In this document: positions 2,844-43,323 of the stretch, one piece after another
How positions within the stretch are numbered: position 1 is the first letter of the stretch
Layout: every line of letters starts with the position of its first letter
DNA from: Candidatus Daviesbacteria bacterium
Lineage (GTDB): Bacteria > Patescibacteriota > Microgenomatia > Daviesbacterales > UBA10151
Length of the DNA: 46,199 bases
Direction: 5' to 3'
Assembly: GCA_016183265.1 (NCBI GenBank)
Contig: JACPEX010000027.1
Span: 1 to 46,199, forward strand
Made by a program: the position numbers and the translations under genes
Notes under the pieces: model-generated
What the model saw: only the letters and a program-made list of their open reading frames with translations
Told to the model about the DNA's origin: nothing
Database searches by the model: none

Positions 2844-4847
2844 ATGGAACTGCAAACTTCTCTTTCGCAAATTACCGGCATTGGACCGGGGCTACTATAT
2901 AAACTCAAAAGGCTGAATTTAAATACCATAGAGGATTTAATTTATCATTTTCCTTTCAGGTATGATGATTTTTCCAATACTACCTCTGCTTTGGAAGCCC
3001 AGATAGGGGAGACTGTTACCCTGCAAGGGGAAATTTGGTCCATCCAAAACATCTATACCAGGTCCAGGAAAATTATTACCAAGGCTGTATTTAATGACGG
3101 AACTTCACCTATTGAACTTACCTGGTTTAACTCATCCTGGTTAACCAAGCAAATACAAACAGGGGACAGGTTACAGGTTTCAGGAAAAATTACTAAATAT
3201 AAAAACAAAATTTCTATAATTGCCCCCAGATGGGAGAAGGCAGACCACCTGGAAGGAGTCAGGGCCCACCTTCCAGGTGTACATACGGGCAGGTTAGTGC
3301 CGGTTTATCCTGAAACAGAAGGTCTTTCTTCCAAGTGGCTGAGGACCAAAATAGATAAAATCCTCCCGCAAATATTAGACAAACTTCAGGATCCGTTACC
3401 GGATGAAATCAGGAAAAATATGTTGAAATTAAATGAGGCAATCAAAAAAGTTCATTTTCCGGAAAGTTGGGAGCAGGCAGAAAAAGCCCGGGAAAGATTA
3501 GGTTTTGATGAATTATTTTATGTCTCTTTAGCAACACAAAAAGCCAGACTGGAGTGGAAAAACAAACCATTGGTTGAACCCTTAAAAATTAAGCCTTCTG
3601 ATTTAAAAAAGTTTCTAAATAAATTGCCGTTTAAATTGACTAATGCCCAACAAAAAGTCCTTAAAGAAATTTTAGATGATTTAGAAAAGAACCAACCAAT
3701 GAACAGGTTAATTCAGGGTGAAGTTGGCTCAGGGAAAACTGTGGTAGCTGCCATCATCGCCTATTTAGTCCATTTAAATAATTTAAAAACTTTATTTATG
3801 GCCCCTACGGAAATTCTGGCCTTTCAACACTTCGAAACACTTAAAAAACTTGGTATAAATGTGGGAATTTATACAGGCAGTAAAAAAGGGGAAGATGGGG
3901 ATGTTTTCGTAGGCACACATGCATTATTAAATAAGGAAATACAGGATGTAGGTTTAGTTATAATAGATGAACAACAACGTTTTGGAGTGCAACAAAGAAG
4001 CATCTTGCGTTCCAAAGCCAAAGTCCCGCACTTTTTAACTATGACAGCAACACCCATCCCAAGAACCATCGCACTAACTTTATACGGAGATTTGGATATG
4101 TCAGTGATTAACGAACTACCTAAAGGCAGGCAGATTGTTAAAACTTTTGTGGTTCCGGAAAAAAAGCGGCAGGATTCTTATAAATTTATTGCCAAAAAAG
4201 TTAGCGAAGGCGATCAGGCTTATATTATTACCCCCTTAATTGAGGCTTCAGAAACACTCTTGTCAGTAAAGGCTGCCAAAGTGGAATTTGAAAAACTGAA
4301 AAAAATATTTCCCAATTTAAGACTGGATTTACTGCATGGCCGGATGAAAGGCGCAGAAAAAGAAAAAATTATAAAAGATTTCCGCTCGGGCAAAACCCAT
4401 ATCCTGATTTCTACTTCGGTCGTGGAAGTCGGCATGGACAACCCCAATGCTACCATCATGGTTATTGAGGGGGCTGAAAGGTTTGGTTTATCACAATTGC
4501 ACCAGCTTAGGGGCAGGGTAGGCAGGGGAACAAAAGAATCTTTCTGTTTACTATACACATCAAATTCTTCCAAAGATGAACAAAGCAGGTTAAAATATTT
4601 GGAAACTACTTTTGACGGCTTAAAATTGGCTGAGCTGGATTTAAAAATCCGGGGCAGCGGACAAATTTTCGGCATCATGCAATCTGGCAGGTTTGAATTT
4701 AAAATCGCCTCTTTTTCCAATTTAGCACTTCTTGAGAAAACTAAGCAGGAAGCCCAAAAATTATTAAGCGCAGATCCAACTCTTGACAAACATCCCAGGC
4801 TTGCCGCAAAATTACAACAGATTGCATCCGGCGTCATGCCGGACTAG
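2844..4847 (+). CDS. recG: ATP-dependent DNA helicase RecG
   Basis: 667 aa. Walker A GEVGSGKT, DEQQRFG box, QLHQLRGRVGRG motif VI, and an N-terminal wedge/OB-like region. Confidence 0.9.
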   Translation: MELQTSLSQITGIGPGLLYKLKRLNLNTIEDLIYHFPFRYDDFSNTTSALEAQIGETVTLQGEIWSIQNIYTRSRKIITKAVFNDGTSPIELTWFNSSWLTKQIQTGDRLQVSGKITKYKNKISIIAPRWEKADHLEGVRAHLPGVHTGRLVPVYPETEGLSSKWLRTKIDKILPQILDKLQDPLPDEIRKNMLKLNEAIKKVHFPESWEQAEKARERLGFDELFYVSLATQKARLEWKNKPLVEPLKIKPSDLKKFLNKLPFKLTNAQQKVLKEILDDLEKNQPMNRLIQGEVGSGKTVVAAIIAYLVHLNNLKTLFMAPTEILAFQHFETLKKLGINVGIYTGSKKGEDGDVFVGTHALLNKEIQDVGLVIIDEQQRFGVQQRSILRSKAKVPHFLTMTATPIPRTIALTLYGDLDMSVINELPKGRQIVKTFVVPEKKRQDSYKFIAKKVSEGDQAYIITPLIEASETLLSVKAAKVEFEKLKKIFPNLRLDLLHGRMKGAEKEKIIKDFRSGKTHILISTSVVEVGMDNPNATIMVIEGAERFGLSQLHQLRGRVGRGTKESFCLLYTSNSSKDEQSRLKYLETTFDGLKLAELDLKIRGSGQIFGIMQSGRFEFKIASFSNLALLEKTKQEAQKLLSADPTLDKHPRLAAKLQQIASGVMPD

Positions 4848-21415: not shown

Positions 21416-21838
21416 TTATTGGGAATTTACCCTGCAATAATAATCTCCGCCTGAAATAGAAGAAAATGATGTGCTGCTGGCTGAATTGCCATTCTTGTTT
21501 TCCAGTAAAGCACAGAATACATAGCCTGTTGTAGTAGGTGTATTTGTATTATAGGCTGCTCCTCCCGGACCCGGATTGGCCGGTAAAGCACTCCCTGCAA
21601 ACCAGGATCCTGCTACAGATGTCGGATAACCGGTTCCGGTAATGTAATTTGCCTCCATAGCTGCAGCCATAGCATCCATATCAGCTTTTCTTTTGGCATC
21701 CCTGGCATTTTTTTGCACACTGGTAAAACCAACTACCCCGATCATAGAAAGAATAGCCAAAATAGAAATAGCAACCAGAAGTTCAACTAAGGTGAAGCCT
21801 TTTGGATTATTAACAGTTCTGGGCAGAAATTTTCTCAT
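21416..21838 (-). CDS. type IV pilin, paralog 3 of 3
   Basis: 140 aa. Leader MRKFLPRTVNNPKG then FTLVELLVAISILAILSMIGVVGFTSVQKNARDAKRK. C-terminal C...YYCRVNSQ. Confidence 0.85.
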   Translation of the reverse strand: MRKFLPRTVNNPKGFTLVELLVAISILAILSMIGVVGFTSVQKNARDAKRKADMDAMAAAMEANYITGTGYPTSVAGSWFAGSALPANPGPGGAAYNTNTPTTTGYVFCALLENKNGNSASSTSFSSISGGDYYCRVNSQ

Positions 21839-21858
21839 TTAATTTTTAGCTATAATTC

Positions 21859-21888
21859 ATTATCTGCATAATCAAAACAGTCTGTCAA
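21859..21888 (-). promoter_or_regulatory. candidate promoter TTGACA-18-GATAAT for pilin paralog 3
   Basis: Minus-strand reading: TTGACA (21888-21883), 18 nt, GATAAT (21864-21859), then a 20-nt leader to ATG 21838. Confidence 0.4.
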
Positions 21889-21909: not shown

Positions 21910-21940
21910 TTACACCCCAAGGGTGTAATCGGAGGTTTAC
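21910..21940. repeat. REP1 hairpin copy 1 (ACACCC-caa-GGGTGT core)
   Basis: ttacaccccaagggtgtaatcggaggtttac. Confidence 0.8.
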
Positions 21941-21970
21941 TTTTTAATTAAAATATGGTCTACTGAATTT

Positions 21971-22687
21971 ATGCCTTCAAGAATACACCCACTAGTCAAT
22001 GGAGAGTATTACCATATCTTCAACAGGGGCGTCGACAAGATGGATATTTTTAAAAACTCATACAACTTTCAAAGATTTTTGAAAACTATGCTTTATTATC
22101 AAATACTTGGGCCAAAACCCAGATTTTCTCTGTTTACGCCTACTAATGATTTATTGGACAAAAGCAAAAAGATTATTGAAATTGTTTGTTACTGTCTAAT
22201 GCCAAACCATTTCCACTTCCTTGTTAAACAATTAATTGATGGCGGCATAACTGAATTTATCAGCAAATTAAGCAACAGTTATACTAAATATTTCAATATT
22301 AAGCATAAAAGAGTAGGACCCCTTCTGCAGGGTGAGTTCAAATCAGTGTTAATGGAAAGCAATGAGCAATTATTACATCTTAGCCGATACATCCACTTAA
22401 ATCCCTTAGTTTCGGATTTGGTAAAAGACTTAAGCGATTATCGCTGGTCATCTTATCCAGAATATATCCGGCTAAACACCCAAAAAATCTGTGCCAAAGA
22501 GATTATCTTAGATCAGTTCAAATCACCAAAGGATTACCAGAAATTTATTTTAAATCATGCAGATTATGGCAGGGAGCTGGAAATTATTAAACACCAACTA
22601 ATAGAAGAGTATGACCTCCGATTACACCCCAAGGGTGTAATCGGAGGTTTACAGATCAAACCCCCAACTTTAAATACCAATCCATAA
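21971..22687 (+). CDS. REP-associated tyrosine transposase (RAYT; HUH/Y1, IS200-like fold)
   Basis: 238 aa. YHIFNRGV, HUH motif MPNHFHFLV, catalytic-Tyr motif LSRYIHLNPL. The 3' end (LRLHPKGVIGGLQ) is read through REP1 copy 2 and overlaps the convergent pilD end. Confidence 0.8.
   Translation: MPSRIHPLVNGEYYHIFNRGVDKMDIFKNSYNFQRFLKTMLYYQILGPKPRFSLFTPTNDLLDKSKKIIEIVCYCLMPNHFHFLVKQLIDGGITEFISKLSNSYTKYFNIKHKRVGPLLQGEFKSVLMESNEQLLHLSRYIHLNPLVSDLVKDLSDYRWSSYPEYIRLNTQKICAKEIILDQFKSPKDYQKFILNHADYGRELEIIKHQLIEEYDLRLHPKGVIGGLQIKPPTLNTNP
22615..22652. repeat. REP1 hairpin copy 2 (full 15-bp perfect stem)
   Basis: CCTCCGATTACACCC caa GGGTGTAATCGGAGG followed by tttac. Confidence 0.85.
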
Positions 22688-23519
22688 TTTGGTTGCCCCA
22701 AAAGAGCATAATCAAAGACCCTAAAACCAAAAATGGGCCAAAGGGGATGGTTTGACCAAAATGTTTCTTGCCGGCAATTATCAAAATTATGGAAAATATG
22801 GCCCCGGTTAGAAAGGATAAAACAACCGCGAATAGAGCTTGCGGAAAACCTAGCATCAACCCGATAAATGCCCCCAATTTTACATCACCTCCGCCCATGC
22901 CTTTTCCCCGGGTAATAATTATTAAACTTAGGAAAAAACCCCCGATCAACAAACCCATTAGTATTCCTAAATAAAGAGGTTCAGCAGCTGCCAGCGCATG
23001 CCTTTGAAAATAATCACTATATGGCGGCAAAAGTTTCCTGCCAATAGGGGACTGGGATAAATAAAAATAAAGATAACCTATTTTATATACAGTAATCGCT
23101 ACCAGACTAATTAGGCTAATAATAATTGCCGGAATTACAATCCTATCCGGAATAAACATCTTTTTAAAATCTGTAATAAATAAAACAACAAGAATAACTA
23201 TAAAAAATATTTTTAATATAAGATCAGGAATAGAAATCAACGAAAATTGGGTTTGAGTAAAAAGATAAGCAATTAATATCCCTAAGATAATTTCAGTAAT
23301 TGGATATTCCAGAGGGATTTTCTTTTTGCAGTATCTGCATTTACCATTAAGAAAAATATATGAAAATATAGGAAAAAGGTCATACCATCTTAATCCTGCT
23401 TTGCAGGACGGACAATACGACCTTCCCCAAAAAGACTTCATACCTAAACTCCGGTCAGCCAGCGCCTTAACTAAACTTCCTAATACCACGCCTACAATAA
23501 ATCCTGCTGACCCCCACAT
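22656..23519 (-). CDS. pilD: prepilin peptidase / N-methyltransferase PilD (peptidase A24)
   Basis: CPSC...CRYC zinc motif, GGGDVKLGAFIG active-site Asp motif, 6-8 TM. The ORF track starts at TTG 23555, overlapping the upstream pilin. ATG 23519 (MWGSAGF) is my preferred start. Confidence 0.85.
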   Translation of the reverse strand: MWGSAGFIVGVVLGSLVKALADRSLGMKSFWGRSYCPSCKAGLRWYDLFPIFSYIFLNGKCRYCKKKIPLEYPITEIILGILIAYLFTQTQFSLISIPDLILKIFFIVILVVLFITDFKKMFIPDRIVIPAIIISLISLVAITVYKIGYLYFYLSQSPIGRKLLPPYSDYFQRHALAAAEPLYLGILMGLLIGGFFLSLIIITRGKGMGGGDVKLGAFIGLMLGFPQALFAVVLSFLTGAIFSIILIIAGKKHFGQTIPFGPFLVLGSLIMLFWGNQIMDWYLKLGV

Positions 23520-23523
23520 TATA

Positions 23524-24066
23524 TTAATAAGTACAACTCCCTCCTGATGTCGCAATCAAACTTAAGCTGGAACCAAGCTCGTAAAGAGCCGGGTCATTAC
23601 CACCATCTCCTCCTGCCTTACCAGATTGCTGTTGCGATTCCAAGGTAGTATTAATTTCCCAAGCATTACCATCAGAACAATAAGTATAGTGCTTTACTGC
23701 ATCATTGATTGGATCAACCGGCAAAGTCGGAACTGATGCAGTCTTTTGGGCAGACAAATTAACCTTTACCCAACCTGTCCCATCAGAACTACGGGTCCCA
23801 CTGTTGCTTGAACCATTACAGGGAGTCGCGCCCCCATTACAAAGAATTTCAGCTGCAGAACCTGTTGCCTCCTGCACAGCCAGACTAATTGCATTTTGCA
23901 AACTAGTGAGATCTGCAAGCCTTGCTACATCACGGCCTCTGCTGTTAATTTCCAACGGATTAACAAAATACCAACTAATAACTGCCAATATGGCAATAAT
24001 TGCAATAACTACCAAAAGCTCCACTAAAGTAAATCCTTTAGCTAGAGCCTGAGCAGATTTTTTCAA
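23524..24066 (-). CDS. type IV pilin-like protein
   Basis: 180 aa. Leader MKKSAQALAKG then FTLVELLVVIAIIAILAV. TTG start preceded by SD GAGGGGGTGA. Confidence 0.8.
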   Translation of the reverse strand: MKKSAQALAKGFTLVELLVVIAIIAILAVISWYFVNPLEINSRGRDVARLADLTSLQNAISLAVQEATGSAAEILCNGGATPCNGSSNSGTRSSDGTGWVKVNLSAQKTASVPTLPVDPINDAVKHYTYCSDGNAWEINTTLESQQQSGKAGGDGGNDPALYELGSSLSLIATSGGSCTY

Positions 24067-30720: not shown

Positions 30721-30723
30721 CTT

Positions 30724-30753
30724 CCCACCCTCCAGGTGGATTAGCTTGACACC
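30724..30753. repeat. REP2 hairpin copy (CCACC-ctcca-GGTGG core with the extended arm on the right side)
   Basis: cccaccctccaggtggattagcttgacacc. The right flank is the reverse complement of the ggtgccaagctaat flank seen at 42529 and 43289. Confidence 0.7.
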
Positions 30754-30801
30754 TCTTCTTTTCTCGCATTAGAAAGGTAAAGATCATATAATATAACTCA
30801 T

Positions 30802-32050
30802 ATGTCTAAAAAAATTCATTTTTTAGGAATTGGGGGGAGCGGGGCGTCGGCAGTAGCGGCAATAGCCGAAGCCCAGGGTTTTAAAATCACAGGATGTGAT
30901 TTAGAGCCCAATAACGAATTTACAACACAATTTAATAGTTTACTTGTAGGTCATGATCCTAGCCACTTAACAAATATTGATATTTTGGCAACCACTCCTG
31001 CCATTTTTTCTTTAGACCCAAATAACCCAGAATTAGTCGCTGCTAAAGAAAAGGGTATTCCAGTGATGACTTGGCAGCAATTTTTAGGGGAATACTTGGT
31101 TAAGGGCAAATTTGTGATAGCCGTTGCCGGCACTCATGGAAAATCAACCACCACTGCCATGATTGCCCAACTTTTAGAGGATGCCAGATTAGACCCAACA
31201 GTCGAACTAGGAGCAATTGTGCCAAAATGGGGCTCAAATTATCGAATTGGCAAAAGTAAATATCTTGTGGTAGAAGCAGATGAATTCAATGATAATTTTT
31301 TGCATTTAAAACCGGATATTACCGTTGTTACTAATATTGAAATGGATCACCCTGAATATTTTAAGGATTTTGAGGCAGTTAAAAGTAGTTTTAAAAAGTT
31401 TTTACTGCAAACAAAAAGCACCATCATTGCAAATTTGGCAGATCCTGGAGTAAAACAAACTTTAGTCTTACACCCCAAGGGTGTAAATATAACTATTGAT
31501 TATTCAAAACATCTCATAGATTTTCCATTACAAATCCCCGGGCAATTTAATATCTTAAATTCCTCTGCCGTTTTTCAAGTAGGACTAATTTTAGGAATTG
31601 ATCCTGCTGTTATTAAAGAGAGCTTACAAAATTATAAGGGGGTTGGCAGAAGGTTTGAGTATATTGGGGAATATAATGGAGCCAAAGTTTATTCTGATTT
31701 TGGTCACCACCCCACAGAAATTGAAGTTACCATTAATGCAGCCAGGGAAAAATTTCCCAATCAAAAAATCATCATGGTCTACCAACCGCATATGTTTTCA
31801 AGGACCAAGGCTTTATTTGCTGATTTTGTGAAGGTTTTCCAAAACCTGCCGGCTGATAAAATATTTATCATTGATATTTATCCTTCCAGGGAAATAGATA
31901 CCGGTCAATCGACCTTCAGTTTTATATGCGGGATCTGCTACAAAAACTTTAGAAAAAATTAAACCGGAAATAAAACCAGGAGATATTGTTTTCTTTATGA
32001 GCGCAGGAGATACAGATAAATTAGCTAAAGAGCTCGTCACAGCGAAGTAA
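30802..32050 (+). CDS. murC: UDP-N-acetylmuramate--L-alanine ligase MurC, interrupted by a +1 frame change near 31898-31935
   Basis: GIGGSGASAVA and the P-loop AGTHGKSTTTAM. Frame 1 ends at 31962 in non-MurC sequence (QSTFSFICGICYKNFRKN*). The next frame reads VNRPSVLYAGSATKTLEKIKPEIKPGDIVFFMSAGDTDKLAKELVTAK* (stop 32048-32050), which is a typical MurC C-terminus. Confidence 0.8.
31468..31486. repeat. REP1 hairpin copy 3, in frame inside murC
   Basis: ttacaccccaagggtgtaa encodes LHPKGV. Confidence 0.7.
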
Positions 32051-37443: not shown

Positions 37444-38450
37444 TAGAAATTTCGGACAAAAAAGTTTGGGAAGATTTTTTATCCAAACACCCTGAAGCAA
37501 ATTTTTTGCAATCCTGGAATTGGGGGGAGTTTCATAAAACATTAAACCATAAGATAAAAAGAAGCGGTTTTATTAAAGATAACAAACTGGTTGGCGTAAT
37601 GCTTTCAGTAGTAGAAAATGCAAAAAGGGGCAAATATTTAACTGTTCCGGGAGGACCAATTATTGATTGGCAAAATAAAAAACTGGTAACCCAATTTGTT
37701 GAAGAAATAAAAAGAATTGCAAAAGCAGAAGGTTGTGTTTTTGCAAGAGTCAGGCCACAACTTGAATCCAATGATTTTTCAAAAAATCTTTTTAAGAAAT
37801 TAGGGTTTATTGCCGCCCCCATGCATCTGCATGCCGAATTAACTTCCCAACTGGACATAACGCCTACCGAAGAACAGCTACTTGCCAATATGCGAAAAGC
37901 CACACGTTACGAGGCAAGAAAGGCCGGCTCGTTAGGAATAAAAATTGAGACCAATAGTGACGAAAAAGCTATCAAAAAGTTTTACGACCTTCAACTCCAA
38001 ACTGCCAAAAGGCAAAAGTTTGTGCCATTTTCTTATCAATTTTTATCTGAACAATTTAAAATATTTTTAGATAATAACCAGGCTGTTTTATATAGTGCCA
38101 AATTGGAAGACAAGTTATTGGCACAGGCCTTTATTATTTTTTACGGTACGGAAGCTGCTTACCATTATGGGGCAAGCACTGAAGAGGGAAGAAAATATCC
38201 CGGGGCATACCTTATACAATGGGAAGCAATTAAGGAAGCTAAAAGAAGGGACATGAAAAAGTATAATTTCTGGGGCGTTTCACCTGAGGGCGATAAAGAC
38301 CACAGGTTTTCAGGGCTTTCATTATTTAAAAGGGGATTTGGGGGAGCAGATTTTGAGTACTTGCATGCACAGGATTTAATAATAAATTATCCGAGATATC
38401 TTCTTAATTATTTAGTGGAACTTTTAAGGAAAAAAATAAGAAGAGTATAA
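37425..38450 (+). CDS. FemAB/FemX-family peptidoglycan aminoacyl (peptidyl) transferase
   Basis: 341 aa. FLQSWNWGEF, AAYHYGAS, YNFWG and FKRGFGG are typical of the FemAB family. Confidence 0.7.
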   Translation: MDKTTVIEISDKKVWEDFLSKHPEANFLQSWNWGEFHKTLNHKIKRSGFIKDNKLVGVMLSVVENAKRGKYLTVPGGPIIDWQNKKLVTQFVEEIKRIAKAEGCVFARVRPQLESNDFSKNLFKKLGFIAAPMHLHAELTSQLDITPTEEQLLANMRKATRYEARKAGSLGIKIETNSDEKAIKKFYDLQLQTAKRQKFVPFSYQFLSEQFKIFLDNNQAVLYSAKLEDKLLAQAFIIFYGTEAAYHYGASTEEGRKYPGAYLIQWEAIKEAKRRDMKKYNFWGVSPEGDKDHRFSGLSLFKRGFGGADFEYLHAQDLIINYPRYLLNYLVELLRKKIRRV

Positions 38451-39007
38451 TGACAAAGATTGCTAAAAAAGTAGATCCTCGTTCACTAGAAACTCAGAAA
38501 ATTATTAAAATAATGTTCCAGACGGCTTACGGAGAACAGAAGGGTAGAAATAAACCAATTATGGTTGGGCTGGCCGCGCCACAAATTGGAATTTTTAAAA
38601 GAATTATTTTAGTAGATGTAAAAGCTGATGGCAAAGGCAAAACAGGAGACTTAAGAGTTTATATAAACCCGGAAATTATTTGGTCTTCCAAAAGAGAAGG
38701 GGAGTGGTATGAGGGTTGTTATTCAACAGGCAGAATCTGCGGAATTGTTTCCCGCCCGATAACTATTAAAATCAAAACATTTACGATGACACCCCAAGGG
38801 TGTAATCGAGAGTTTAGAAAATACTCAGATTATGTGGCCAGGATTTTTCAGCATGAGATTGATCACCTAGATGGCAAAATTTTTACTGACCACATTAAAA
38901 ATCCGGATCATCTACATTGGGTGGAAGAAAAAGAATTCCCCTTATATAGAAATAAAGAAGCTTGGCGAAATTGGCCCAAAAAAGCTTCTTTGAATATGGT
39001 AAAATAG
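38450..39007 (+). CDS. def: peptide deformylase
   Basis: 185 aa. GLAAPQIG, EGCYS and QHEIDHLDG are the three deformylase motifs. Confidence 0.85.
   Translation: MTKIAKKVDPRSLETQKIIKIMFQTAYGEQKGRNKPIMVGLAAPQIGIFKRIILVDVKADGKGKTGDLRVYINPEIIWSSKREGEWYEGCYSTGRICGIVSRPITIKIKTFTMTPQGCNREFRKYSDYVARIFQHEIDHLDGKIFTDHIKNPDHLHWVEEKEFPLYRNKEAWRNWPKKASLNMVK
38789..38816. repeat. REP1 hairpin copy 4, in frame inside def
   Basis: acaccccaagggtgtaatcgagagttta (26/28 identical to copy 1) encodes TPQGCNREF, between deformylase motifs 2 and 3. Confidence 0.7.
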
Positions 39008-42497: not shown

Positions 42498-42528
42498 AAA
42501 TTTTTAAACAAATACCATAAAAAGAGTA

Positions 42529-42572
42529 GGTGCCAAGCTAATCCACCCTCCAGGTGGAAACACATTGACACC
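42529..42572. repeat. REP2 hairpin copy (extended)
   Basis: ggtgccaagctaatccaccctccaggtggaaacacattgacacc. Outer ggtgccaa / ttgacacc arms pair with one mismatch. Confidence 0.75.
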
Positions 42573-42599
42573 TTTACTTATTTATTCTATTTTTAGGAT

Positions 42600-43274
42600 A
42601 TGCCCACTAATAGAAAATTAGTCTTTGCAAATGATGAAATTTACCATGTATTTAATAGAGGAGTCGAGAAAAGACCAATTTTTACAGATAAACGCGAATA
42701 CAAAAGGGCACTGCTCGCATTAGACTTCTACCGATTTACCAGCCCTCCTGTTAAATTATCAAAATTTCTTATTATTCCTAAAGATCAACAGGAAAAATTC
42801 CTGGAAAATATAAAAAAAGAATTTGAGAAACTTGTAGAAATAATCTGCTACTGTTTAATGCCAAATCATTTTCATTTTCTGCTTAAGCAGAAAATGGATA
42901 ACGGCATTTCAACTTTTATCTCAAATCTCACCAATAGCTATACCAGATACTTTAATACAAAGCATGAACGCATTGGCCCGCTTCTTGAAGGAATATTTAA
43001 AGCCGTAAGAATAGAGTCAGAGGAACAGCTTATGCACACATCAAGATACATACATTTAAATCCAGTTTCCTCATTCTTAATTGAACCTGAAGAATTAGAT
43101 AATTATGAGTGGTCATCTTACCCTGAATTTTTGGGGCATTCAGATAAAAATTTTGTCACCAAAGACCTCATACTAAATTTCTTCCCCTCAATAGCTGCCT
43201 ACAAAAAGTTTGTTTTAGATCAAGTAGACTATGCAAGGCAATTAGAGCTAATCAAGCATTTAACTCTGGAATAA
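42600..43274 (+). CDS. REP-associated tyrosine transposase (RAYT; HUH/Y1), second paralog
   Basis: 224 aa. YHVFNRGV, MPNHFHFLL and TSRYIHLNPV, collinear with 21971..22687. Confidence 0.8.
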   Translation: MPTNRKLVFANDEIYHVFNRGVEKRPIFTDKREYKRALLALDFYRFTSPPVKLSKFLIIPKDQQEKFLENIKKEFEKLVEIICYCLMPNHFHFLLKQKMDNGISTFISNLTNSYTRYFNTKHERIGPLLEGIFKAVRIESEEQLMHTSRYIHLNPVSSFLIEPEELDNYEWSSYPEFLGHSDKNFVTKDLILNFFPSIAAYKKFVLDQVDYARQLELIKHLTLE

Positions 43275-43288
43275 AGTAAAAAAGGACA

Positions 43289-43318
43289 GGTGCCAAGCTA
43301 GTCCACCCTCCAGGTGGG
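43289..43318. repeat. REP2 hairpin copy
   Basis: ggtgccaagctagtccaccctccaggtggg. Confidence 0.75.
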
Positions 43319-43323
43319 AATGA

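Follow-up and report, generated by a model that had tools for sequence, protein, structure and literature searches.

How should a lone transposase-like gene be read that sits, between hairpins of its own, beside the prepilin peptidase gene of a bacterium from the candidate phyla radiation (CPR): as an active insertion sequence, as a disperser of repetitive extragenic palindromic (REP) elements, as part of a host signal, or as a gene maintained by its lineage? The question arises from a 46,199-nt stretch of DNA of Candidatus Daviesbacteria bacterium (the window; contig JACPEX010000027.1, our C39, of assembly GCA_016183265.1, which holds 676 kb in 39 contigs and is ~84% complete), where a gene that we call RAYT1 (21971–22687, plus strand, 238 aa) lies between pilD and the first pilin gene and is flanked by copies of a hairpin that we call REP1. 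The answer that we consider moderately probable is that RAYT1 is a single-copy, selectively maintained and mostly vertically inherited gene for a class-2 HUH/Y1 single-stranded DNA endonuclease, placed between same-strand cognate hairpins, a layout that is that of an IS200-type ancestor.

REP-associated tyrosine transposases (RAYTs) are the standard case of a bacterial transposase that has become "domesticated"; research on them, nearly all of it in Proteobacteria, has yet to settle what they do. The REPtron is said to have been described by Nunvar and colleagues in 2010, Bertels and Rainey in 2011 and Ton-Hoang and colleagues in 2012, and palindromic repeats translated within genes, the Rickettsia palindromic elements (RPE), were reportedly described by Ogata and colleagues in 2000. 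In the literature searched, we found no description of RAYT-like systems in the CPR.

The RAYT1 protein

The RAYT1 open reading frame (ORF) carries the motifs NHFHFL and SRYIHLNP and matches the Pfam family Y1_Tnp with 27 bits against a cut-off of 23. Residues N79-H80-F81-H82, Y140, N144-P145 and S161 are invariant among 39 homologues, and the protein unites the HUH motif with a single catalytic tyrosine on an HUH fold, as expected of the HUH/Y1 superfamily. A sequence search of the PDB returned TnpA-REP (4er8) as its best match, at a marginal E-value of 0.3, so that a fold search was needed; queried with the AlphaFold model, the PDB again gave 4er8, the E. coli TnpA-REP with its REP hairpin, as the best match (E 7e-7, TM 0.68 on the target), followed by the structures of IS608 and ISDra2 TnpA (2a6m, 2vjv, 2xm3). 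The only NCBIfam match is REP_Tyr_transpos (NF047646), whose 48.7 bits fall short of the equivalog cut-off of 80. With 22,181 clusters (50% identity, E <= 1e-3), the homologue family is a very large one, and public homologues of RAYT1 bear the names Daviesbacteria and Levybacteria.

On the basis of motifs, hidden Markov model scores and fold, RAYT1 belongs to the RAYT/TnpA-REP branch of the HUH/Y1 enzymes: it has the Y-x3-NP signature of class 2 (YIHLNP) and lies nearer to TnpA-REP than to IS200 TnpA. Within that class, subclass 2.1 is characterised by NH[YF]H, FQ or W[EQ], Y[IV]HLNP, an SS tail motif and an added C-terminal domain (PMC6006769); matched by eye to Table 1 of that paper, RAYT1 shows NHFH, LQ (FQ or FE in its paralogues), YIHLNP and WSS, as well as a helical C-terminal region (residues 162–218), motifs that are of the subclass 2.1 or TIRYT-like type. 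TnpA-Y1 subclass 2.1 corresponds to Bertels group 1 and contains most "TIRYTs"; it is reported to be without REP-like sequences (PMC6006769; PMC5581495; PMC3733652).

A preliminary description of the locus, made from the letters alone, had called the gene an HUH/Y1 transposase bracketed by direct copies of a repeat, which the ORF, its Pfam match and the exact repeat pair described below bear out, and had named, as one outcome that would refute its reading of the gene as a RAYT, that the protein might prove to be an ordinary IS200 TnpA with a tnpB partner. We rejected that identity: the tyrosine motif is Y-x3-NP and not the Y-x3-Q of IS200 TnpA (subclass 1.1), the conserved body measures 215 aa and not ~150, the nearest paralogue is 64% identical where near-identical copies would be expected, the closest fold is that of 4er8, and no TnpB domain is detectable beside RAYT1 or across the assembly.

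Flanking hairpins, promoter and C-terminal tail

The 31-nt sequence TTACACCCCAAGGGTGTAATCGGAGGTTTAC occurs in exactly two exact copies, both on the plus strand, at 21910–21940 and 22622–22652; none is expected by chance, and shuffled sequences contain none. The upstream copy, REP1-L (21910–21940), consists of a hairpin, TTACACCC-caa-GGGTGTAA (21910–21928), and a tail, TCGGAGGTTTAC; it lacks the left outer arm, and its stem comprises the inner 8 bp only (−6.4 kcal/mol, DNA fold). Hairpin and tail also stand upstream of the RAYT1 orthologues of four relatives (genomes G004 and G018, contigs L075 and L076). In the downstream copy, REP1-R (22614–22652, plus strand), the 31-nt repeat forms the right half of a palindrome at 22614–22648, ACCTCCGATTACACCC-caa-GGGTGTAATCGGAGGT, with a perfect stem of 16 bp (−18.7 kcal/mol, z = −9.2, DNA fold), and it ends at 22652, 3 nt from the stop codon of the convergent pilD gene (22656–22658). 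The perfect stem and this spacing agree with the preliminary description, which had put the stem at 15 bp. Same-strand subterminal hairpins at both ends, the hallmark of IS200-type elements, are thus present around RAYT1 as direct 31-nt copies, and they recur around its paralogues and orthologues.

The foot of REP1 reads TTAC or GATTAC; a GTAG tag, or 5' GT[AG]G foot, was not seen on REP1, and terminal inverted repeats of the TIRYT type (GGGGWSAS) were not seen around RAYT1, whose flanks are same-strand hairpins. A search of the hairpins against Rfam gave nothing meaningful. We also considered REP1-R as an intrinsic terminator and rejected this, since it has no T-run.

On contig L076, the loop is flipped in both copies that flank the RAYT1 orthologue. 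Upstream of RAYT-like genes in L002 (G004), L075 and L007, the left arm of the hairpin is duplicated in part and in tandem, each time breaking off in the loop, for example with TACTTACACCCCA twice ahead of the complete hairpin; slippage or processing might have left such scars.

The -35-like box of RAYT1 is itself part of the REP1 tail. Read from the sequence, TTTACT, 17 nt and (TGG)TCTACT at 21936–21964 (plus strand; box pair TTTACT-17-TGGTCTACT) form a candidate promoter that a consensus promoter scan did not report, being too weak. The stretch GGTTTACA...TCTACT is kept in four RAYT1 orthologues, and the paralogues carry TTGACA(CC) at the position of the -35-like box.

At its other end, the ORF runs past REP1-R as far as 22687 and so shares 32 nt with the 3' end of pilD. 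Homologues have lengths of ~215 aa, and their alignment covers residues 1–213 only, the conserved body. This leaves residues 214–238 as an additional tail, whose codons come from REP1-R and from the antisense strand of the pilD end; it is seen in this genome only and is predicted to be disordered (predicted local distance difference test score, pLDDT, ~36, against 80 for the whole model). The orthologues in G004 and G018 have a stop codon before the hairpin; here, CCTCCGA, which is complementary to the tail, stands in place of the stretch that bears it, and the 25 residues exist because the palindrome was extended across the stop codon. The translated tail is an incidental by-product. That the repeat is read through as the last ~25 codons, as had been proposed, therefore holds for a translated tail, of which the repeat supplies one part and pilD the other.

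The insertion site

The gene pilD (22656–23555, minus strand; Pfam A24_N_bact and Peptidase_A24) is convergent with RAYT1 and has orthologues in 18 of the 18 genomes of the genus. On the other side lies the first pilin gene (21416–21838, minus strand; 21416–21888 with its promoter). The site is empty in at least 12 genomes of the genus: there, the first pilin follows pilD after 54–100 nt, and the -35 box of its promoter overlaps the pilD stop codon. The comparison with relatives lacking the insertion, which the preliminary description had recommended, thus identifies the unit as a genuine insertion. This ancestral promoter, TTGACA-18-GATAAT at 21888–21859 on the minus strand (11/12 matches), is still present in the window, so that the insertion does not sever the pilin from its promoter; the earlier statement that the RAYT splits pilD from the pilins is right as to position, and the pilins are not cut off by it.

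RAYT1 and its orthologues (84–88% identity) lie between pilin and pilD in the genome studied here (G000), in G004 and G018, and on contigs L075 and L076, in all cases with REP1 on both sides. In G012, a near relative of G018 (one marker protein is 90% identical), the site holds a solo REP1 and a fragment of the pilD end and no RAYT1, a state most simply explained if the two REP1 copies recombined and the gene was lost in the process. Among three RAYT1 orthologues, for which these values were computed, dN/dS is 0.05–0.07; nonsynonymous divergence (pN) is 0.05–0.06, compared with 0.13–0.23 for def, prmC, pilD and a membrane protein gene, and synonymous divergence (pS) is 0.51–0.56, compared with 0.59–0.80 for the same four genes. 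Low pN and dN/dS together with a pS close to that of housekeeping genes indicate that RAYT1 is old at this site and strongly constrained. The unit entered the pilD–pilin junction once, in a sub-lineage of the Daviesbacteria genus, and stayed there.

These data bear on the view that RAYT1 is an active, autonomous, minimal IS200-like element, the ends of which are the same-strand hairpins and whose 0.74-kb unit still moves by single-strand peel-and-paste. Such an element would look much like this one, a lone Y1 gene between same-strand subterminal hairpins in a unit of IS200 size that some genomes of the genus carry and others lack; in addition, a 73% identical homologue in another organism (L077) occupies a different site, directly after pheT, with a hybrid REP1/REP2 hairpin, and the paralogues carry flanking hairpins too (five clearly on both sides), which implies that whole units were copied at some time. 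Yet all five orthologues stand at one site, their synonymous divergence is about as deep as that of housekeeping genes, and none of the 41 related genomes surveyed for the family contains identical or near-identical copies (the paralogues reach at most 64% identity). The tyrosine motif, the protein length and the missing tnpB also speak against an active IS200-like element, as do duplicates of the pilD 3' end beside the insert, which are foreign to IS200/IS605 insertion. We regard continued mobility of this kind as unlikely.

The duplicates just mentioned are found, in decayed form, left of the insert in the relatives G018, G012, G004 and G010; in the window, local alignment of the pilD 3' end to the sequence left of the insert scored 22, against a shuffle mean of 20, and thus revealed no significant duplicate. 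As a side observation, the pilD 3' end is an insertion hotspot of the genus, where each cassette comes with a 40–110-nt duplicate of the pilD 3' end and an integrase is absent. The cassettes include pairs of toxin-antitoxin type, MNT/HepT-like in G004 (L017, 1420–3500; there together with the RAYT1 unit) and AbiE-like in G010 (L021, 2484–3589); further hotspot loci are L020 in G018 (~2610–2760) and L026 in G012 (3396–3564).

The locus was also found in four groundwater metagenome runs (X1–X4), in the form of assembled contigs that break at the 31-nt repeat and are silent on excision or circles; their depth over RAYT1 equals that of the flanks. These runs contain a second population, in which the sequence left of a REP1 copy (…TAATTTCCTGGCCCCAAAAAACCATAATAA, with loose ends at window position 22620) matches the left flank of the RAYT1 unit of G018 and which has deeper coverage in some runs.

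Paralogues and their hairpins

RAYT1 is one of seven diverged paralogues of the subfamily in its genome; identities to RAYT1 range over 38–64%, and none is near-identical. R1, R2, R3, R4 and R6 are bracketed by a private hairpin in same-strand orientation, R5 partly so, and R7 has a downstream hairpin only; the private hairpins are of the xCACCC-N3-4-GGGTGx type or of others. For R2, R3, R4 and R6, as for most orthologues found in relatives, TTGACA(CC) comes directly after the upstream hairpin, with a -10-like box ~17 nt further on. The family is present in 33 of the 41 related genomes, in 1–13 diverged copies each. R2 occupies a slot, between a cobO-like and an RNR-like gene, that is constant in three genera, and at 69–84% identity it is more conserved than its neighbours (62–76% for the cobO-like gene); its hairpins have diverged and are still palindromic. 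One gene copy per hairpin type, vertical inheritance and purifying selection, the pattern known from RAYT/TnpA-REP genes, are thus all found here.

R3 is encoded in the window as well (ORF 42600–43274, 50% identical to RAYT1) and is bracketed by same-strand copies of AGGTGCCAAGCTA(A/G)TCCACCCTCCAGGTGG (42519–43320). A third hairpin of this type lies in the gyrB–murC gap (30722–30762), with its long arm on the opposite side, and seven related TCCACCCCCCAGGTGGAA hairpins occur on other contigs, mostly in intergenic positions. Outside the window, in the region C18:17360–17539 of G000 (minus strand), we noted a Y1 protein of a different type (207 aa; IMPNHIHGII, WQRNYYEH, YITNNP), whose motifs match subclass 2.4. 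Between its first strand and its HUH motif, CVDPNPNS is repeated three times; this may be an example of the in-frame repeat insertions that have been reported for subclass 2.4.

REP1 copies within genes

Six REP1 cores are found in the assembly: the two that flank RAYT1, two elsewhere in the window and two on other contigs. All four solo copies (4/4) lie in frame inside real genes. Those in the window are at 31468–31486 (plus strand), where the core is read as LHPKGV within a Mur-ligase (murC-like) gene (30802–31962), and at 38787–38805 (plus strand; one mismatch, followed by the tail TCGAGAGTTTAG), where it is read as TPQGC within the peptide deformylase gene def (38450–39007); the others are in a PrmC-like methyltransferase gene, just ahead of the NLPY motif, and in the gene for a 542-aa membrane protein (G000 C37:4699). 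An intragenic location is not a general rule for the hairpin families of this genome, and we rejected it as such: REP2 solos and most REP3-like copies are intergenic. No REP1 doublets (REPINs) exist in the assembly, the closest two copies being the 712-nt pair around RAYT1.

This census bears on the proposal, made in the preliminary description, that the locus is the classical proteobacterial REP/RAYT arrangement, that is, a domesticated RAYT that disperses a population of extragenic REP doublets. Several of its elements stand: the protein is of class 2 with TnpA-REP as its best fold match, the gene has hairpins of its own, there is one gene per hairpin type and several types per genome, as in Pseudomonas (PMC3337134), and REP1 recurs away from RAYT1, with four copies beyond the flanking pair, two of them in the window as had been stated, so that the fear of a repeat confined to the locus is dispelled. 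The classical layout itself, with abundant, extragenic palindromes on a GT[AG]G foot in inverted doublets, is not what we see. There are only six copies and no doublets, the GTAG foot is absent, the flanking copies are direct and not inverted, and the dispersed copies, including the two in the window, are intragenic without exception; moreover, the REP_Tyr_transpos score is under its cut-off and the motifs are those of subclass 2.1, not of 2.2 or 2.5. A classical REPIN–RAYT system is, in our judgement, quite improbable here.

The in-frame copies are not peculiar to this genome. Nine relatives, including genomes without RAYT1, have 1–10 REP1 copies each, and among the copies examined in six relatives, many are in frame and several are at orthologous positions; about 8 of ~10 distinct coding sites read as LHPKGV. 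At orthologous sites, the 16 stem positions differ in 2 of 224 comparisons, against ~34% difference in the ungapped 60-nt flanks. The loop at the def site is flipped between two species (TTG in the G004 orthologue). At the membrane-protein site (C37:4699; orthologues L050–L066), nearly every genome of the genus has a palindrome in one and the same loop of the protein, of at least 4 types plus one chimera; outside the genus, the loop has no palindrome. On the membrane-protein tree, carriers of the REP1 allele do not form a single clade, which forces at least 2 changes. The palindrome at this site is decayed in G003, the only genome without any RAYT homologue. Dependence of REP1 conservation on RAYT1 itself was tried as an explanation and rejected, as three genomes without a RAYT1 orthologue (G008, G013 and G012) have perfect REP1 cores. 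In G008, one such core with the full RAYT-type tail (TCGGGGGTTTACAG) was noted in frame near the 3' end of pheT (L039; C3:592771), the gene that the 73% RAYT1 homologue directly follows in another organism.

Could the hairpins be host signals, such as an operator or promoter module or structural or translational pause sites, and the Y1-fold protein a hairpin binder with no role in DNA mobility? The position of the hairpin against the -35 box in most paralogues and orthologues would fit, as would the persistence of perfect hairpins in genomes without RAYT1 and the one coding site that keeps a palindrome of changing sequence across the genus. A pure binding protein, however, would not be expected to have invariant catalytic HUH and tyrosine residues, the recurrence of one 19-mer in genes with no relation to each other implies that it was copied as DNA, and the partial duplications of the left arm beside the gene resemble processing scars. 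We give this explanation little credit.

The polyphyletic allele, the changes of type, the flipped loops and the arm duplications are patterns that none of the tests run explains; together they suggest that hairpins at fixed sites are replaced or converted. One speculative possibility, which we rate as rather doubtful, is that in these CPR genomes of less than a megabase the RAYT-like family, with its many paralogues, and the short palindromes form a maintained system and are not debris, in which hairpins in frame within essential genes are kept perfect, or now and then overwritten by another type at identical codon positions, through enzyme-driven, template-directed conversion on single-stranded DNA. 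The decayed palindrome of G003, which has no RAYT homologue, would fit this possibility.

A proposed maintained endonuclease gene and its cognate hairpins

If RAYT1 is the maintained single-strand endonuclease gene proposed at the outset, it would, by analogy with TnpA-REP and IS608 TnpA, bind the REP1 hairpin on single-stranded DNA and cut and rejoin the strand beside it. Binding at the hairpin copy embedded in the candidate promoter could then autoregulate the gene. The few dispersed REP1 copies may owe their origin to the same activity, which may even now keep them uniform; in so gene-dense a genome, seeded copies would survive only as in-frame inserts in tolerant protein loops.

Several observations weigh against this account. 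The pS of RAYT1 is slightly below that of the neighbouring genes, and some exchange between lineages is therefore possible. The duplicates of the pilD 3' end at the hotspot suggest that the unit entered by recombination and not by Y1 transposition. The perfect REP1 cores in genomes that lack RAYT1 mean that it cannot be the sole keeper of these hairpins. Cutting and rejoining are predicted for RAYT1 by analogy, and the metagenome data consist of assembled contigs only. Finally, subclass 2.1 is reported as not associated with REPs (PMC6006769).

Comparison with known systems

Among the closest known systems, RAYT1 and its hairpins share with the REPtron (E. coli YafM, PDB 4ER8; Pseudomonas RAYTs), which also supplies the best match in fold, a class-2 Y1 HUH enzyme with Y-x3-NP, a separate gene for each hairpin type in genomes that hold several diverged types, and a single-copy, vertically inherited gene under strong purifying selection that is flanked by its own hairpin. 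They differ from it in the lack of a GTAG foot and of REPIN doublets, in flanks that are same-strand and not inverted, in copy number (6 for REP1 compared with 10^2–10^3) and intragenic dispersed copies, and in a protein that is longer, ends in a helical C-terminal domain and does not reach the equivalog cut-off of NCBIfam. With subclass 2.1 and the TIRYTs or "TIRtrons" (Di Nocera et al., 2013; PMC3733652) they have in common the motifs (NH[YF]H, x[QE], Y[IV]HLNP and the SS tail motif), the length class (215 aa for RAYT1, subclass median 238), the low copy number and the diverged intragenomic copies; some TIRYT flanking repeats are also self-complementary and form small families. Unlike RAYT1, however, members of subclass 2.1 reportedly have no REP-like hairpins, and the terminal repeats of TIRYTs are inverted and contain GGGGWSAS, where RAYT1 is flanked by short same-strand hairpins that bear a promoter box; its CPR lineage was, moreover, unsampled in those surveys.

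IS200 (IS200/IS605, subclass 1.1) resembles RAYT1 in its lone Y1 gene, same-strand subterminal hairpins, ~0.7-kb unit and HUH/Y1 fold, and differs from it in the tyrosine motif (Y-x3-Q, not Y-x3-NP) and protein length (~150 aa, not 215); RAYT1, for its part, has no identical copies, a fixed chromosomal site and a genome without tnpB. The dispersed REP1 copies, lastly, recall intragenic REPs (PMC3733652) and RPE, which are likewise palindromes tolerated in frame in loops of unrelated housekeeping genes, but the REP1 elements are much shorter (19–41 nt) and occupy orthologous sites across the genus with invariant nucleotides, and the type of palindrome changes at one site.

Implications

A CPR lineage with genomes of 0.7–1.2 Mb thus keeps up to 13 diverged RAYT-like genes, most of which, in the genome studied here, have a private hairpin, and the group-1 or subclass-2.1 branch, thought to be REP-less, can have REPs. 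Since the genome leaves hardly any intergenic space, the cognate hairpins are found in frame within essential genes, where they are far more conserved than the surrounding codons and where their type can switch at a fixed site. These nucleotide-perfect, type-switching hairpins inside essential genes, unexplained as they are, are the most interesting point that remains. If enzyme-driven conversion were true, it would mean that a domesticated transposase is still editing coding DNA in a sequence-specific manner; and if the enzyme is responsible, a 215-aa protein with a 19–41-nt hairpin would offer a small, tractable system for asking what RAYTs do.

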